45,183 nucleotides of DNA from Deltaproteobacteria bacterium. GTDB taxonomy: Bacteria; Desulfobacterota; GWC2-55-46; UBA9637. Shown here piece after piece: positions 1 through 42,339 of this stretch. Numbering within the stretch: the stretch's first letter is position 1; the number at the start of each line of letters is the position of its first letter. The notes under the pieces are model-generated. The model saw only the letters and a list, made by a program, of their open reading frames with translations. It was not told where the DNA came from and made no database searches. Location: NCBI GenBank assembly GCA_016200645.1, contig JACQEJ010000051.1, positions 1 through 45,183 on the forward strand, read 5' to 3'. Both the position numbers and the translations under genes were made by a program.

Positions 1-659
1 ACCTCGCTGTAAATTCTTTTAACCTCTCCCATCATCCTTGCCCTTTTGTTTCTCTCTGCCACGATAATTGATTTAAGCCTTTCAAACGCATTTTCCAGCT
101 TATCATTGATAATAACATACTCATACCATACCAGCTCTTTGATCTCATTTCGTGCATTTTCCAATCTGCTCACAATTGTTTCATAGCTGTCCTTGCCTCT
201 GTTTCTAATCCTTTCTTCACAGGCTTCCAATGATGGCGGGAGGATAAAGATGAAAACTGCTGACTGTTCACTGTTCACTGATAACTGTTTCTTGACCTGC
301 CGCGCGCCCTGGACATCAATATCAAGGATTATATCCAATCCGTTCGCAAGGAGGGATTGAATGTCTTCATACGATGTCCCGTATCTATTTCCGTGAACCT
401 CTGCCCATTCCAGAAACTTCCCTCGTTCTATCATCTGCTGAAAGGTTGCTTTACTGATGAAGTGATAATCAACTCCATCCGTTTCACCATTTCTAGGGAG
501 TCTTGTTGTGTATGATATAGAATGCCTCAAATCATGGAAATATTCAACCGCCTTCCTGCAAAGCGTTGTCTTGCCTGCGCCCGAAGGGGCGGAGACGATG
601 AAAAGGATGCCGCTCTGAACGATTTTGGATTGCGGATTGCGGATTGCGGATTTATTCAA
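1..659 (-). CDS. gmk: guanylate kinase (3' end runs off the window edge)
   Basis: My own translation of the minus strand gives ...GILFIVSAPSGAGKTTL (P-loop)...YTTRLPRNGETDGVDYHFIS...EWAEVHGNRYGTS...DIDVQGARQV...FILPPS. There is no stop before position 1, so the ORF track misses it. Likely TTG start at 659-657 overlaps the yicC stop (ATTGAATAA), with AGGTG 7 nt upstream. Confidence 0.85.
   Translation of the reverse strand, partial: MNKSAIRNPQSKIVQSGILFIVSAPSGAGKTTLCRKAVEYFHDLRHSISYTTRLPRNGETDGVDYHFISKATFQQMIERGKFLEWAEVHGNRYGTSYEDIQSLLANGLDIILDIDVQGARQVKKQLSVNSEQSAVFIFILPPSLEACEERIRNRGKDSYETIVSRLENARNEIKELVWYEYVIINDKLENAFERLKSIIVAERNKRARMMGEVKRIYSE
257..291. repeat. 7-nt periodic tandem array (ctgctga ctgttca ctgttca ctgataa ctgtttc) inside gmk
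   Basis: Read directly. It encodes the extra segment LSVNSEQS between the conserved QVKK and AVFIFILPPS blocks of guanylate kinase, and the frame is preserved. Confidence 0.8.
627..652. repeat. (GGATTGC)x3 plus a partial heptamer array at the yicC stop / gmk start junction
   Basis: Three perfect units at 627-647 followed by ggatt. On the minus strand it encodes residues 4-11 of the predicted Gmk N-terminus. Confidence 0.9.
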
Positions 660-1524
660 TGTTTTGCACCTGTTCCCGTATCTTCTCCAGCTCCGCCTTT
701 GCCGAAACAACAAGACTGGCCAACTCAAAATCATTGGCCTTTGAACCGATGGTGTTTAATTCCCTTAAAATCTCCTGGCAGAGAAAATCCATTTTTCTGC
801 CAACAGGCTCATTTAATTGGAGCAGATCATTAAACTGCGCTATATGGCTTCTTAATCTTACCAACTCTTCTACAACACTGCTCCTCTCTGCAAAAATTGC
901 GGCTTCCGTTAATAGCCGCGCCTCATCTACATTCGCATCACCCAATAGAGCAGTCATCCTCTGTTTCAGTTTCTCTCCGTATGTCTCCGCCACAACAGGC
1001 GCCCGTGCTTCCATTTTTGCGGCAATATCTTCCATGCAAGCAAGCCTTGAGGCCATATCCCTTGCAAGGGCAGCCCCTTCCTCTTCCCTCATTTTTATCA
1101 GGGAGTTTATTGCAATCTCCAGACCGACTTTCAGCCCCTTCCAATCCCTTTCCATATCATGTTCCGTTTCCCTTGAAGCAAATATATCCTTGAATTTCAA
1201 AAGCAGCGCCATATCGATTTCCTGCTTAAGTCCAAGCTCTTGCCGGAGTTCCTGAAGCGCGCCAAGATAATGCCTGGCCAAAGAAATATTAGGCTTCAAT
1301 ATTCCTGCTGTTTCTCCGGAAGATATGATTGATATATAAAAACAACCTCTGGCGCAGGACTGTTTTACTGCCTCTCTTATCCTGTTTTCTAACAAGAAAA
1401 ATCTGTCAGGGGCCTTGATATTTATCTCTATAAAGCGGTGGTTCACGCTTTTTATCTCAAGGGAAAACTTATCTTCTCCGATTGAAAACTCAGATACGCC
1501 GCAGCCTGTCATACTTTTAAGCAT
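652..1524 (-). CDS. yicC: YicC/YloC family stress-induced protein (putative endoribonuclease)
   Basis: 290 aa. N-terminal MTGCG, and a C-terminal DFLCQEILRELNTIGSKA...EKIREQVQNIE block typical of the YicC N- and C-terminal domains. Confidence 0.85.
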   Translation of the reverse strand: MLKSMTGCGVSEFSIGEDKFSLEIKSVNHRFIEINIKAPDRFFLLENRIREAVKQSCARGCFYISIISSGETAGILKPNISLARHYLGALQELRQELGLKQEIDMALLLKFKDIFASRETEHDMERDWKGLKVGLEIAINSLIKMREEEGAALARDMASRLACMEDIAAKMEARAPVVAETYGEKLKQRMTALLGDANVDEARLLTEAAIFAERSSVVEELVRLRSHIAQFNDLLQLNEPVGRKMDFLCQEILRELNTIGSKANDFELASLVVSAKAELEKIREQVQNIE

Positions 1525-2062
1525 TTATATATGCTTCCTTTTGCAGCTGATGTACATACCGCTCTCTAATCCCCTTCAGCAACCTTCTCATGCTGTTTTC
1601 AGCATAGTCCGGAAATGTCCACTCCAGCGGTTGAAAGTTGTCAGCCCTGTAAATGAGCGTCAAGTCCGCATAGACGCCTTTTTGCAAATATATCCTATGA
1701 GAGAAATTTTTGCAGCTTGCAAGAACCGTCTTTTCCATAGCAATATATCCTGGATCTATGTTTATCATCCTCTTTCTGTTTTCTTTCAAGCATTCATCTT
1801 CCAGCGAATTAGTAAAAAGCTTTATGTCGGGCAAGGAATCGGGTTTTATAAGATTTTCAAAAGAGGCAAGCTTCCTGAATAAACCATCGCCCATTTCATC
1901 TTTATAATAATCGGTATGATTAAAATAGAGCCTCGCGCTTAAAATATCTATGCCGCCGAATTTATCTTCCAGTTCTTTTAAAACGGCTTTGAGAATTCCT
2001 TTATCGCCTGTTATAAGGCTGATTATCAATTTGACCGAATTCGGTTCTTTGGGCATGCTCAT
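1517..2062 (-). CDS. DUF4416 family protein
   Basis: 181 aa. NIDPGYI...KTVLASCKNFSHRIYL...WTFPDY resembles the DUF4416 signature as I recall it. Translationally coupled to its neighbours (8-nt and 4-nt overlaps). Confidence 0.55.
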   Translation of the reverse strand: MSMPKEPNSVKLIISLITGDKGILKAVLKELEDKFGGIDILSARLYFNHTDYYKDEMGDGLFRKLASFENLIKPDSLPDIKLFTNSLEDECLKENRKRMINIDPGYIAMEKTVLASCKNFSHRIYLQKGVYADLTLIYRADNFQPLEWTFPDYAENSMRRLLKGIRERYVHQLQKEAYINA

Positions 2063-41085: not shown

Positions 41086-41157
41086 GCCCATAGCTGATGG
41101 CTCATAGCTCATAGTAAAATCTTTTGCTATCAGCCATGAGCTATGAGCTAATAGGCT
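41086..41157. repeat. Palindromic AGCTSAT heptamer array, sister of the element at 21967-22039
   Basis: The left arm tagctgatggctcatagctcatag and right arm ctatcagccatgagctatgagcta match at 20 of 24 positions when folded. Located directly after the purC stop. Confidence 0.8.
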
Positions 41158-41178
41158 ATCTTATCAGAGAGGTAAAAG

Positions 41179-42339
41179 ATGTCATTATATCAGCATAAAA
41201 AAGCTATCCTTGCGTTAGCAGATGGCGCTGTGTTTGAAGGTTATCCATTCGGCGCAGAAGGCGAGGCAATCGGCGAGGTGGTTTTCAATACCTCTATGGC
41301 AGGGTATCAGGAGGTTCTTACCGACCCGTCATATAAAGGCCAGATGGTTGCCATGACCTATACGCAGATTGGAAATTACGGGGTCAATGAGGAGGACTTA
41401 GAGTCAAATAAACTCTGGCTTGACGGTTTTATCGTCAAAGAATATTGCGACTATCCGAGCAGTTGGCGGTCAAAGGAAACCTTAGATAATCACCTTAAGC
41501 GCAATAAAATCGTTGGCATAAAAGGCATAGATACAAGGGCGCTTACAAGGTACTTGAGGGATAACGGCGCAATGAACGGCATTATATCAACCATAGATTC
41601 GAATCCAGCAAACCTGGTTAAAAAAGCACGAGAATTTCCTTCCATGGCAGGGCTTGACCTTGCAAAGGAGGTAACCTGCAAAGAGCCATACAGATGGGAG
41701 CAGGGATTGTGGGATTTGGGAAAGGGTTATTCACTCCGAACTCCGAACACCGGACTCCGAACTCATCGTGTGGTTGCCTTTGACTTTGGCATAAAATTCA
41801 ATATATTGCGAAACCTTATTAATGTTGGATGTGATGTGACAATTGTGCCGGCTTCAACATCTGCCGAAGATGTTTTAAAGATGAATACTGACGGCATATT
41901 CCTTTCCAACGGCCCAGGCGACCCCGATGCCGTCACTTACGCGATTGAGAATGTAAGAAAGCTGATTGGCAAGAAACCGATATTCGGCATCTGCCTCGGT
42001 CATCAGATACTCGGATTGGCTCTGGGCGGCAAGACTTATAAACTCAAATTCGGTCATCACGGCGGGAATCAGCCTGTCATGGATTTGACAACAAGAAGGG
42101 TTGAAATTACATCGCAAAACCACGGCTTTGCTGTTGATGTGGATTCGCTCAAAGGCATCGCGGAACTCACGCATATAAATCTGAACGACAAAACTGTCGA
42201 AGGTCTGGCGCATACAAAATTGCCGCTCTTCTCTGTGCAGTATCATCCCGAGGCATCTCCTGGGCCGCACGATTCTTCGTATCTATTCAGGCGCTTTGTT
42301 GACATGATGGAGGGTAAGTGGAGTTTCAAGAGTATATAG
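41179..42339 (+). CDS. carA: Carbamoyl-phosphate synthase small (glutaminase) subunit
   Basis: 386 aa. [25 protein letters not shown] (catalytic Cys), [14 protein letters not shown]. Confidence 0.95.
41732..41766. repeat. Heptamer array cactccg aactccg aacaccg gactccg aactcat in the carA interdomain linker
   Basis: Read directly. It encodes [12 protein letters not shown] just upstream of VVAFDFGIK, and the frame is preserved. Confidence 0.8.

Follow-up and report, generated by a model that had tools for sequence, protein, structure and literature searches.

The window, meaning the whole 45,183-nt stretch of DNA that was analysed, comes from an uncultured Thermodesulfobacteriota ('Deltaproteobacteria') lineage whose nearest relatives are groundwater MAGs, the host being a sulfate-reducer-type bacterium from groundwater. 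Its genes include gmk, an LPS-core glycosyltransferase cluster with a polysaccharide deacetylase, and holB, nnr, purB, purC and carA, and tandem arrays with a period of 7 nt lie within and between them as listed here.

263..289, minus strand: degenerate array in gmk, sense CAGTTAT CAGTGAA CAGTGAA CAGT
627..652, minus strand: perfect array ATCCGCA x3.7 directly past the yicC stop codon
3199..4522, minus strand: split GT4 glycosyltransferase gene (ORFs 4010-4522 and 3199-3942, each a Pfam half)
4040..4065, minus strand: AAAAGTC x3.7 array at the GT4 frameshift
7328..7362, minus strand: TGGGGCT x5 (plus-strand letters) array in GT9b
8382..8414, minus strand: perfect array, sense TTCAAAA x4.7, in GT4b
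12271..12299, minus strand: degenerate G-rich array GGAGGTG (plus-strand letters) in GT9c
13221..13251, minus strand: perfect array, sense AGTCAGG x4.4, in the polysaccharide deacetylase gene
14839..14870, minus strand: perfect array, sense GTTCAAA x4.6, in the C-terminal loop of GT9d
15307..15331, minus strand: array GCTGAAG (plus-strand letters) in GT9d
15636..15664, minus strand: perfect array, sense GGGTCAG x4.1, in GT9d
15870..15899, minus strand: array at the GT2/GT9d junction
21966..22047, plus strand: inverted array pair (TAGCTCA-type and its complement)
24880..24911, no strand: degenerate intergenic array CCTATAG/CCATAGC
30329..30343, plus strand: 2-unit array TTACGAC, 4 nt upstream of a response-regulator start codon
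37248..37291, plus strand: composite array, AATTTCC x2 then AATGACC x2-3
40308..40346, plus strand: degenerate AAGGNNN array, TRF period 14
41085..41150, plus strand: second inverted pair, AGCTCAT-type
41733..41764, plus strand: degenerate ACTCCGA x4.6 array in the carA inter-domain linker

TRF gave about 20 arrays in the window, 19 of them separate with period 7 and one (40308-40346) scored as period 14, at the coordinates reported in the first-pass annotation of this DNA, whose count of at least 16 arrays is borne out. A self-match scan returned 12 period-7 arrays with a score of at least 10, against an expectation of 0.03 from 30 dinucleotide-preserving shuffles of the window, and merely 0-3 arrays for each of the other periods (2-6 and 8-21). 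The unit sequences are as first listed and distinct, except that the AGCTCAT/ATGAGCT family recurs, its four occurrences making up the two inverted pairs. The Pfam map and the positions also agree with the earlier count of about ten arrays within genes, a single GT9 gene having three: gmk (263), GT4 (4040), GT9b (7328), GT4b (8382), GT9c (12271), deacetylase (13221), GT9d (14839, 15307 and 15636) and carA (41733). Eight of these ten fall in the LPS-core glycosyltransferase cluster (p = 0.002). Apart from 627-652 and 15870-15899, the rest, as had been proposed, abut stop codons (holB, nnr, purB, purC) or occupy short gaps between co-directional genes. Four arrays in the LPS cluster (8382, 13221, 14839, 15636) are 100% matches in TRF, whereas those in gmk and carA are degenerate (84-85%).

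The gmk array encodes LSVNSEQS in a variable loop following DVQGARQVK. An insertion of 21 nt (+7 aa) had been suggested there; measured against the array-less relative L007, the net gain is +15 nt and +5 aa. In the alignments, L002-L004 have the same decayed array and L006 and L008 a TTGCAAA-type array at this site. The 627-652 array is in frame and lies in the N-terminal extension of the longest gmk ORF; the frame through this variable stretch is open in L002-L007, whose gmk match reaches the N-terminus, and no ATG, GTG or TTG lies between the array and the gmk P-loop.

The two GT4 halves share one frame in all seven closest genomes, as judged from tblastn coordinates, and the read-through is stop-free in six of the seven, the single stop in L004 lying past the gene end, in a check for which the L002 and L008 sequences contain masked stretches. 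From anchor to anchor, the segment measures 52 nt in the window (remainder 1 on division by 3) and 57-99 nt, in frame, in the relatives. Compared with the 66 nt of L109 and L003, the window's array is 14 nt, or two units, shorter, while the flanks, the 25-nt downstream one included, are equal in length to those of these two genomes. Simulated repair by -7 nt or +14 nt gave an open frame of 440-447 codons. The expectation that a change in unit number shifts the frame thus has its example in this gene, where the frame is displaced by precisely two units. Across genomes, the units at this site are AAAAGTC, AGTCAGG, AGTCAGA, AAGGGTC, AAGTCAC and GCAAAGG, and every array is homogeneous in itself.

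The other internal arrays occupy, like these, loops or linkers that are variable among orthologues and relative to PDB structures. In GT9b, the array encodes LAPSPKPQASSPT at a hypervariable site, and the protein is identical in an independent Logan assembly; the GT4b array, with the peptide KFKIQNSKFKI, likewise marks a hypervariable site. The GT9c array encodes TTPRPPPPTS, with a net +2 aa compared to orthologues, and the deacetylase array encodes VRSQESGVRS in a lineage-specific loop that is ~33 aa longer than in PDB 6dq3. The orthologous deacetylase array of L082 has a 27-nt palindromic mini-element nested within it. In GT9d, the 15307 array (PAFSLQPAA) is part of an 11-aa extra segment and the 15636 array (RGQGSGVRGQ) part of a 17-aa one, while the C-terminal site carries AGTCAGG- or GGTCAAG-type arrays of equal length in orthologues. 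The carA array encodes an 11-residue peptide, leaves the net length unchanged relative to E. coli CarA, and is conserved in relatives of 88-90% identity. The earlier statement that each array inserts a peptide while the reading frame stays open therefore needs amending, since GT4 is broken, and in carA and at the GT9d C-terminus a loop or linker of equal length has been swapped. Net differences from array-less orthologues are 0, +2, +5, +11 and +17 aa, none a gain by a multiple of 7 aa.

At the gene junctions, the 15870-15899 array includes the GT2 stop codon and probably the GT9d start ATG, and the GT9d alignment starts immediately downstream of it in most relatives. The 21966-22047 pair begins at the holB stop codon and is predicted to fold into a long hairpin, with the PSP1 gene following 20 nt downstream (-43.4 kcal/mol, z = -7.1 for the predicted RNA fold). 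The second pair, at 41085-41150, lies 2 nt past the purC stop and 28 nt ahead of carA and also folds into a predicted hairpin (-38.0 kcal/mol, z = -6.3). The predicted fold of 24880-24911 is weak (z = -1.7), and RNA folding found no secondary structure in the 37248-37291 array, which overlaps the nnr stop codon and ends 8 nt ahead of the EamA start; its unit AATGACC is a rotation of GACCAAT, comparable to the GAC(C/T)AAT x8 of Nostoc 7120. The AAGGNNN array at 40308-40346 overlaps the purB stop codon, with purC 31 nt further on, and the TTACGAC array at 30329-30343 is the weakest member of the set.

The units differ from array to array, as first described, and they are not arbitrary, sharing the degenerate consensus RKKCARR with a GTCA core. 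In statistics that pool orthologous arrays of related genomes, so that independence is incomplete, the units hold 5.8 bits of information compared to 4.2 +/- 0.16 for random stop-free genomic heptamers, 23 of 52 match RKKCARR in full (5.5% expected), and the orientation relative to the gene is sense in 33 cases and antisense in 17. Among 90 lineage arrays, 58 different canonical units were counted, and at one site the GTCA core is retained across genomes with saturated neutral sites. The TTCAAAA unit of GT4b also occurs in the Nitrospirota MAGs L030, L074 and L065, and long ORFs of L030 carry AATTTTG x4.6 and CAGAAGT x4.7, identical in unit and copy number. In Nostoc 7120 (PCC 7120), (TTCAAAA)3-4 is found at 21 loci, besides GAC(C/T)AAT x8.

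The period distribution, which the first-pass annotation had put forward as a check, was determined with TRF for 244 kb of the lineage (15 loci), and has its maximum at 7: 90 arrays (3.7 per 10 kb) have this period, compared to 22 for period 8 and 16 for period 9. The self-match scan found arrays in all seven closest genomes, at 0.5-3.6 per 10 kb, and no period-7 array in ~65 loci of other bacteria sharing the gene neighbourhood. The trait is also present in a few Nitrospirota and Desulfobacterota MAGs, some with identical units. STRR-like heptamers do, then, occur in a non-cyanobacterial genome, related to Thermodesulfobacteriota groundwater MAGs, and identical peptide segments were not seen in unrelated taxa. 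By count, most lineage arrays (63 of 90) lie in frame within ORFs, but the density is 6-12x greater in non-coding than in coding DNA, as known systems show. Just one of the ~63 coding arrays in the 15 loci is out of frame. Of 52 internal arrays, 30 fall at 4.x copies, all stay below 6, and in 47 the sense unit is stop-free. Orthologous sites are again occupied by arrays in more than 15 loci that were assembled independently in different projects, and at four such sites (GT4, gmk, deacetylase, GT9d) the units vary by genome and are homogeneous within each array, which indicates ongoing turnover. Fourfold-degenerate sites of the deacetylase gene are just 31-55% identical among the genomes compared; since orthologous arrays are homogeneous yet divergent while neutral sites are near saturation, the arrays are continually regenerated or homogenised (concerted evolution).

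The cyanobacterial STRR sequences of Calothrix, Anabaena and Nostoc are similarly tandem 7-nt repeats with several unit types and many dispersed copies; the window units TTCAAAA and GACCAAT are identical to Nostoc 7120 units, and GAACAGT differs by one mismatch from STRR3, which Mazel et al. reportedly gave in 1990 as CAACAGT. STRRs also share the usual 3-8 units, the position in short gaps by start or stop codons, and the occasional hairpin pairs (PMC2670836; PMC4692102). The present arrays differ in being found in uncultured Thermodesulfobacteriota, along with Nitrospirota MAGs, instead of a heterocystous cyanobacterium, and in lying mostly in frame inside ORFs. The TAACTGA repeats of marine Beggiatoaceae, some Cyanobacteria and Bacteroidetes (MacGregor 2015, PMC4679880) are also heptamer direct repeats with a patchy distribution across phyla; they have 2-6 copies, overlap upstream stops or lie just before starts, and a few are translated as 7-residue repeats (PMC4679880). 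One unit of the window's gmk array, CAGTTAT, is an exact TAACTGA-type unit, and the array's peptide LSVNSEQ is similar to LSVISYQ. In that system, however, a single unit prevails, few related heptamers occur and the copies inside ORFs lie at protein ends (PMC4679880), whereas 58 unit types, a degenerate consensus and internal loops of conserved enzymes are seen here. The heptanucleotide 'long simple sequence repeats' of Mrazek, Guo and Shah (2007), as relayed in PMC4679880, likewise show a period-7-specific excess in scattered lineages that is explained by slippage, and the GGGNATC repeats of Xanthomonas and Nostoc (Rehm 2015, PMC4692102) share ~4 units, inverted pairs and non-coding enrichment between co-directional genes. 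Both are reported to be under-represented in coding regions, and the 4-unit preference is ascribed to G-quadruplex formation (PMC4692102), but most units here cannot form a G4 and the 4-unit mode is seen nonetheless. The SSRs of phase-variable LPS/LOS glycosyltransferases (Haemophilus, Neisseria, Campylobacter) resemble the present arrays in a unit length that is not a multiple of 3, in their surface-glycan genes and in one gene whose frame has been lost through an altered number of units; here, by contrast, the tracts are much shorter, just one is out of frame, the host is a free-living groundwater anaerobe, and arrays are also present in housekeeping genes and spacers. Selfish mini-insertions inside protein genes, such as the Rickettsia palindromic elements and the small dispersed repeats of Nostoc, are, like these arrays, short in-frame repeats tolerated in loops of conserved proteins; the arrays are, however, tandem microsatellites with no palindrome and no fixed ends, and are not copies of one element. 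For the Nostoc repeats, Elhai reportedly described in 2008 a nesting within heptamer arrays like that of the 27-nt palindromic element in relatives here.

Phase variation has precedents in LPS genes and in the 7-nt repeats of Haemophilus, and the pure arrays in the LPS-core glycosyltransferases and deacetylase could be contingency loci, that is, selected hypermutable switches at which 7-nt changes toggle the enzymes and vary the LPS core, for instance as a defence against phages, with the broken GT4 as a captured OFF phase; we consider this rather unlikely in all its parts. The clustering in LPS genes, the (near-)perfect repeats there as opposed to the degenerate ones in housekeeping genes, and the two-unit displacement of GT4 would fit, but at 3.6-5 units the tracts are far under usual phase-variable tracts, they lie mid-gene in loops and not close to N-termini, a single coding array in 15 loci is out of frame, and weaker constraint on the glycosyltransferases (orthologues 50-75% identical) explains the enrichment equally well. 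An LPS-specific mechanism is not required, since gmk, carA and numerous intergenic sites have similar arrays too. Distinctly unlikely, in our estimate, is a sequence-specific generator, in which a horizontally shared enzyme or mobile element, present in cyanobacteria, Beggiatoaceae, Desulfobacterota and Nitrospirota, writes or copies GTCA-core heptamer arrays of ~31-33 nt into DNA without local slippage as the source; an HUH/RAYT-type nuclease, a reverse transcriptase or a polymerase accessory factor would be candidates. Such a generator is suggested by the consensus well above null and its use in both gene orientations, the units and copy numbers repeated in L030, the Nostoc 7120 arrays, the replacement of loop sequence with length kept, the patchy distribution that MacGregor notes for TAACTGA, and a RAYT gene in the window that has inverted clusters of the consensus-compatible GGGTCAAA on its flanks. 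Yet no candidate gene is linked to the arrays, the RAYT homologues of L109 and L005 are without such flanks, and terminal signatures, target-site duplications and conserved flanks are all missing from the arrays; moreover, the 90 arrays comprise 58 different canonical units, chance sharing between taxa is expected with ~1170 canonical heptamer classes and many types per genome, and peptide-level selection could favour purine-rich, stop-free units.

Regulation by intergenic and junction arrays, acting as cis-elements on translation or transcript stability, with the coding arrays as spill-over, is very improbable as the explanation, and equally so in the form of sites for single-strand-binding Csp/S1-type proteins or of hairpin terminators or stabilisers. 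Most non-coding arrays do adjoin a stop codon, with 4-31 nt between their end and the following start codon in co-directional operons, a layout similar to that of TAACTGA in 'Maribeggiatoa'; heptamers near Nostoc start codons altered reporter regulation when deleted, STRR hairpins lie between cyanobacterial hup genes (PMC2670836), and the two inverted pairs are predicted to be very stable hairpins. The direct arrays, by contrast, are without structure in RNA folding, orthologous spacers differ freely in their arrays, and the 63 arrays in ORFs would be left unexplained; a single binding specificity does not fit, since the unit sequence differs at nearly every site. Such functions are in any case compatible with the explanation that we prefer, and not an exclusive alternative to it. 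There is a negligible chance that the arrays, or at least the GT4 frameshift, are errors of metagenome assembly or sequencing. Assemblers collapse or break at repeats, and Logan contig L001 ends near the arrays flanking PSP1-metG, but recurrence at orthologous sites in independent assemblies, exact reproduction of the GT9b array and a length of 25-35 nt, much shorter than reads, exclude an artefact for the arrays as a class. The GT4 half-proteins are on record solely from the NCBI contig, so the frameshift is without independent confirmation, and the 14-nt difference alone is possibly an artefact, such as a mixed-population consensus.

The first-pass observation is confirmed and its overall interpretation partly supported. 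We think it probable that the arrays are heptanucleotide microsatellites of the STRR or 'long SSR' type, produced by a lineage-wide mutational process and filtered by selection, and that this process is a property of the whole lineage, not peculiar to the locus studied. Among long SSRs, the heptanucleotide class is in many genomes the most abundant one and is attributed to slippage (Mrazek 2007, as relayed in PMC4679880), and a 4-unit preference with inverted pairs has been reported in Xanthomonas and Nostoc (PMC4692102). Units would be gained and lost through slipped-strand mispairing or a related templated process, apparently favouring units of RKKCARR form, ~4-5 units and ~31-33 nt. The shared unit consensus in both gene orientations is not accounted for by plain local slippage alone, the recurrence of identical units across phyla, the retained GTCA core and net length changes other than multiples of 7 aa also count against it, and because single-unit steps are frameshifts, homogenisation within genes would need 21-nt steps, compensated intermediates or a conversion-like process. 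Within genes, selection would keep arrays whose units are stop-free, whose total length preserves the frame and whose site is a permissive loop or linker, with survivors mainly in the fast-evolving LPS-core glycosyltransferases; between genes, expansion would proceed up to a stop or start codon, and inverted pairs would yield hairpins. The 7-residue peptide repeats would then be tolerated passengers rather than functional modules, and the broken GT4 a by-product, either a pseudogene or a transient OFF allele. On this best reading, the arrays are an addition to a known repeat class.

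Tandem Repeats Finder (TRF) identified 19 separate arrays of head-to-tail 7-nt units in the 45-kb window, with 2.1-6.3 copies each, as well as one further array (40308-40346) that was scored as period 14, and arrays were present at the positions listed in the first-pass annotation. In a self-match scan (match +1, mismatch -3, score at least 10) with 30 dinucleotide-preserving shuffles as the null, the window gave 12 strong period-7 arrays compared to a shuffle mean of 0.03, and every other period within 2-21 gave at most three arrays; heptamer arrays far beyond chance are thus confirmed. 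The enrichment of period 7 for which the first-pass annotation proposed a test also appeared in 244 kb of sequence from the lineage, a sample rather than a whole genome, where TRF found 90 arrays of period 7 (3.7 per 10 kb), compared to 22 for period 8 and 16 for period 9. In 1.25 Mb of sequence from outside the lineage, 75 period-7 arrays were found, 43 of them in a few positive metagenome-assembled genomes (MAGs).

Relatives of the host were found by a gmk protein scan using one genome per GTDB species. The best matches were seven close relatives with 61-74% identity that keep the gmk-to-glycosyltransferase synteny, all of them uncultured Thermodesulfobacteriota or 'Deltaproteobacteria' MAGs from aquifers or groundwater. 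A metagenome scan with the polysaccharide deacetylase of the LPS-core cluster added eight more syntenic loci (62-69% identity). Period-7 arrays were present in all seven closest genomes, at 0.5-3.6 per 10 kb in the self-match scan, and in the metagenome relatives, and were absent from ~65 loci of other Desulfobacterota, Nitrospirota, Proteobacteria and further groups fetched with the same gmk query. The sporadic positives outside the lineage (loci L030, L074, L065, L053 and L047) comprised two Nitrospirae groundwater MAGs, a Thermodesulfovibrionia MAG, the Olavius 'Delta 1' symbiont and a Desulfocapsa MAG. An assembly artefact is excluded for the class as a whole, since arrays recur at orthologous sites across the assemblies of different projects and the GT9b glycosyltransferase encoded by an independent Logan assembly is identical, array included. 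A Logan contig of SRR12113410 (L001, 2329 nt) corresponds to window positions ~22018-24346 and carries identical PSP1 and metG genes from another sequencing run; its ends lie near the heptamer arrays flanking these two genes, which suggests that such arrays break short-read assemblies.

The arrays were placed on a gene map built from Pfam scans, with the riboswitch from Rfam; the crcB riboswitch context noted in the first-pass annotation was recovered as a match to RF01734.

Genes and period-7 arrays of the window
Minus strand: gmk, yicC, a DUF4416 gene and a PfkB/HldA-like kinase gene, followed by the LPS cluster
3199 to 16639, minus strand: LPS-core cluster (13 kb), in the order GT4, GT9, Wzy, GT9, GT4, GT1-like, GT4, GT9, polysaccharide deacetylase, GT4, GT9, GT2
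After the LPS cluster: Y1 transposase gene, then the fluoride riboswitch with crcB
18741-18807, plus strand: fluoride riboswitch RF01734 (35.5 bits), upstream of crcB and a DUF190 gene
Plus strand: holB, PSP1, metG, TonB receptor, two-component pair, TatD-radical SAM, nnr, purB, purC and carA
Ten arrays inside genes: gmk 263; GT4 4040; GT9b 7328; GT4b 8382; GT9c 12271; deacetylase 13221; GT9d 14839, 15307 and 15636; carA 41733
627-652: junction array starting directly after the yicC stop codon, in frame in an N-terminal extension of the longest gmk ORF
15870-15899: junction array including the GT2 stop codon and the probable GT9d start codon
Remaining arrays: next to a stop codon (holB, nnr, purB, purC), or 4-31 nt before the start codon that follows

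At the 627-652 site, the frame of the gmk extension is open in the relatives whose gmk match spans the N-terminus (L002-L007), and the site offers no alternative start codon. Array density in the window was ~28 per 10 kb in non-coding compared to 2.4 per 10 kb in coding DNA, a difference of ~12-fold, and the corresponding difference in the lineage set was ~6-fold; by count, 63 of the 90 lineage arrays lie in ORFs. The LPS cluster holds eight of the ten internal arrays but only 32% of the coding DNA (binomial p = 0.002).

Compared at the DNA level, arrays at orthologous sites are uniform within a genome and different between genomes. At the GT4 site the unit is AAAAGTC in the window, AGTCAGG in L109, AGTCAGA in L003, AAGGGTC in L004, AAGTCAC in L008 and GCAAAGG in L007, and the gmk, deacetylase and GT9d C-terminal sites show the same pattern of differing homogeneous units. 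Fourfold-degenerate sites of the deacetylase gene are 31-55% identical between genomes, close to saturation, and several window arrays have no internal mismatch in TRF, indicating that the arrays arose or were made uniform long after the genomes had split. Such concerted evolution implies that units are still being gained and lost. Array age is unequal between genes: the carA array is degenerate and is kept in relatives with 88-90% identity, and a decayed version of the gmk array is common to four genomes.

Orthologue alignments placed the array-encoded peptides at a few hypervariable loop or linker sites, in agreement with solved structures. The deacetylase array lies in a loop ~33 residues longer than that of PDB 6dq3, the region holding two of the GT9d arrays exceeds its PDB 3tov counterpart by 33 residues, and the carA array occupies the linker joining two domains. 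Coding arrays are not simply insertions, as judged from net lengths relative to array-less homologues: about 0 at the GT9d C-terminal site, +2 aa in GT9c, +5 aa in gmk, and +11 and +17 aa at the other two GT9d sites. For carA, whose net length is within one residue of E. coli CarA and whose linker equals the E. coli linker in length, an insertion model is out. The additional gmk peptide had been read in the first-pass annotation as exactly three units (21 nt), but the net difference from the array-less gmk of L007 is 15 nt, five residues rather than seven. In GT9c, the G-rich array region at 12271-12299 is a net 6 nt longer than in orthologues and the flanking 11-13 residues are unalignable; a unit gain (+7) offset by a nearby 1-nt deletion, with a short stretch read in a shifted frame, might account for this. 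Units were stop-free in 47 of the 52 internal arrays in the lineage set.

The consequence of a change in unit number is seen in GT4, which in the window consists of two ORFs (4010-4522 and 3199-3942), each a separate protein in the source record, and whose halves share one frame in all seven relatives compared. The distance from GDGCHREWLIQR to the (L)NPLHL anchor is 52 nt in the window (1 modulo 3) compared to 57-99 nt, always a multiple of 3, in the relatives. Relative to L109 and L003, which belong to other species and have an in-frame distance of 66 nt, the array is 14 nt, or two units, shorter and the 25-nt stretch downstream is of equal length; removing one unit or adding two gives an open frame of 440-447 codons. 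The argument of the first-pass annotation that unit changes in coding arrays are frameshifts therefore has a direct example in GT4, which is two units short and out of frame. The split may represent a pseudogene, a phase-OFF allele, or an error of the consensus or assembly.

GT4 is the sole confirmed array frameshift among the ~63 coding arrays of the 15 lineage loci. A restore-the-frame test on all 90 lineage arrays flagged eight, including GT4 and the array at 14743 in L004. On inspection, the flagged array at 6493-6610 in L086, one of the lineage loci, proved to lie at a gene end, and the other flagged arrays, judged from tabulated numbers alone, were attributed to adjacent-gene fusions produced by removing stop-containing units. 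Exact-sequence cluster look-ups with eight array-bearing proteins, all singletons except carA and GT9b, showed no unit-number polymorphism, and the 90% clusters of carA and GT9b, with the GT9b of the independent assembly identical, contained no array variant. Look-ups with the neighbouring GT9a and HldA found no second contig with the GT4 region, and the metagenome scan with the deacetylase found no contig of the same species.

Copy number was regular. Among the 52 internal arrays, 30 had 4.x copies, mostly 31-33 nt in length, and the range was 2-5 with none of six or more; non-coding arrays also had a mode of 4 and reached 17 copies. The coding copy number fits the in-frame addition of three units (21 nt) to a seed of ~1.5 units, and a four-unit preference has been reported for non-coding heptamers in Xanthomonas and Nostoc (Rehm 2015, PMC4692102). 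The L086 array at 6493-6610 is the longest seen in the lineage, a 118-nt composite of 17 units (AGTCAAA/AGTCAGG/AGTCGAG and others) with a 42-nt higher-order repeat, located at the 3' end of a membrane-protein gene and upstream of GT2.

The 90 lineage arrays comprise 58 canonical units with the degenerate consensus RKKCARR (e.g., AGTCAGG, GGTCAAG, GGGCAAG, TTCAAAA). After best rotation and strand assignment, unit information content was 5.8 bits for internal arrays compared to 4.2 ± 0.16 for random stop-free genomic heptamers, and 4.95 bits for all arrays compared to a null of 3.73 ± 0.10, and 23 of 52 units matched RKKCARR in full compared to 5.5% expected; these statistics include non-independent orthologous arrays, and the consensus comes from the same data, with the null fitted in the same way. 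Relative to the gene, RKKCARR was in sense orientation in 33 cases, giving peptides rich in K/G/S/Q/R, and antisense in 17, giving peptides rich in L/P/S; its occurrence in both orientations argues for a preference at the DNA level. Some units are shared across phyla. AATTTTG/TTCAAAA occurs in the window and in three Nitrospirota MAGs, and (TTCAAAA)3-4 is found at 21 loci of Nostoc PCC 7120; AATGACC/GACCAAT at window 37270-37290 is the GAC(C/T)AAT repeat of Nostoc. In L030, a Nitrospirota MAG, perfect arrays of 4.6-4.7 copies lie deep within ORFs of 375 and 553 codons.

Between genes, arrays begin at the upstream stop codon and finish shortly before the downstream start codon, the same layout as the TAACTGA repeats of 'Maribeggiatoa' and the STRR (short tandemly repeated repetitive) sequences and heptamers in Nostoc. 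RNA folding indicated no secondary structure in direct arrays, and inverted AGCTCAT-type pairs at 21966-22047 (-43.4 kcal/mol, z = -7.1) and 41085-41150 (-38.0 kcal/mol, z = -6.3) form long hairpins. Regulatory roles for the intergenic arrays are a rival reading to the mutational account favoured below.

Several other repeats were observed in the same DNA. A 24-C homopolymer at 28181-28204 (plus strand), preceded by an inverted-repeat nest at 28058-28160, lies 45 nt before the GTG start codon of a HAMP-GAF histidine kinase gene; such tracts are classically prone to slippage, and this may be a further variable site. At 30230-30331 (plus strand), ~13 copies of the 8-nt unit AGTTATAA/AGTAGAAA, with higher-order periods of 16 and 31, span the interval from the histidine kinase stop to the response-regulator start and are followed directly by a TTACGAC x2 array. 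The TatD-radical SAM ORF (31805-33229) contains, at ~32690-32716 (plus strand), a palindromic mini-element of 25-27 nt, GTCCCCGCAGGCTTTAAGCGGGGAT, read in frame as VPAGFKRG directly after the radical-SAM cysteine motif. Relatives carry the same element in frame in their GT9b and GT4b genes, where it reads PRLKPAGTS or VPAGFKRG, and it is nested in heptamer arrays in the L082 deacetylase and L005 gmk genes. A longer dispersed element, translated as PSPL(A/V)GEGQGEG, is present in relatives L004 (e.g., at 2127-2147, 3414-3434 and 6463-6483), L007, L083, L084 and L086, in frame in three different glycosyltransferase genes and the deacetylase, and does not occur in the window.

A lineage-wide heptanucleotide microsatellite process of the STRR or long-SSR type, filtered by selection, is the best-supported explanation for the observed period-7 excess, lineage specificity, turnover at orthologous sites, location in loops and single unit-number frameshift. 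Units would be gained and lost by slippage, the mechanism proposed for heptanucleotide SSRs in the literature as summarised by MacGregor (2015; PMC4679880). Within genes, only stop-free units, in-frame lengths and permissive loops would survive, mostly in fast-evolving LPS glycosyltransferases, with change probably proceeding in three-unit steps and the encoded peptides presumably neutral; between genes, arrays would fill the spacers. The copy-number mode and the unit consensus are regularities that simple slippage does not predict. The consensus and the sharing of units across phyla support a sequence-specific generator, that is, a dedicated heptamer-writing mechanism, a minority possibility for which no candidate was found. 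One gene considered for this role was the IS200-like gene at 17628-18590 (minus strand), a REP-associated tyrosine transposase (RAYT; NF047646, 85.5 bits) fused to a DnaA-C-like HTH and flanked at 17580-17621 and 18645-18682 by inverted clusters of GGGTCAAA/GGGTCAGA. Of the 11 copies in the window, six lie at these flanks, with 2.8 expected by chance for the whole window, and the GGGTCAAA motif agrees with the consensus of the heptamer units. In L109 and L005, RAYT homologues have neither such flanks nor nearby arrays, so that the RAYT as array generator is not supported. REP/REPIN elements are palindromic dispersed repeats, unlike the heptamer direct arrays, which are not palindromic.

Adaptive phase variation of LPS genes is likewise a minority possibility. 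Eight of the ten internal arrays fall in LPS GT4, GT9 and deacetylase genes, their unit length is not a multiple of 3, several LPS arrays are 100% pure and GT4 is out of frame by two units, but the tracts are short, with 2-5 copies rather than the long pure tracts of phase-variable genes, and there is one OFF allele only. We consider it improbable that a horizontally shared, sequence-specific process writes GTCA-core arrays of ~4-5 units in Cyanobacteria, Thermodesulfobacteriota and Nitrospirota and that these act as reversible frameshift switches in LPS-core genes; if true, this would be heptamer-based phase variation of the outer membrane in an environmental, non-pathogenic bacterium.

In cyanobacteria, heptanucleotide repeats have been described since 1990, with later reports from a few other groups. 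The arrays described here share with STRR-like or long-SSR repeats their 7-nt head-to-tail units, over-representation of period 7, patchy distribution among lineages and higher non-coding density. They are not cyanobacterial STRRs in the strict sense, which have heterocystous hosts and the units STRR1-3; the host here is a Thermodesulfobacteriota-type MAG lineage, and most of its units are distinct, TTCAAAA and GACCAAT being among those shared. They also differ from the TAACTGA family (MacGregor 2015), in which one unit prevails and related heptamers are rare, as 58 canonical units occur here and one gmk unit is of TAACTGA type. Lin and Kussell (2012) did not treat heptamers. New here are the host lineages, the high proportion of in-frame arrays within genes for conserved enzymes, and the evidence from comparison that arrays evolve in concert and that their units follow a shared consensus.

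These results extend the range of heptanucleotide repeats to uncultured groundwater Thermodesulfobacteriota and Nitrospirota. They also provide an unusually informative set for comparison: in more than 15 genomes, a syntenic LPS cluster carries different homogeneous arrays at the same loop sites. This set shows ongoing turnover, a consensus overlapping cyanobacterial units, and a two-unit change able to break a gene. Annotators of such MAGs should regard low-complexity loops of 7 residues, and glycosyltransferase genes that are split, as microsatellite products. The lineage offers a system for testing whether period-7 slippage is a property of the polymerase, the work of a dedicated mechanism or a result of selection.
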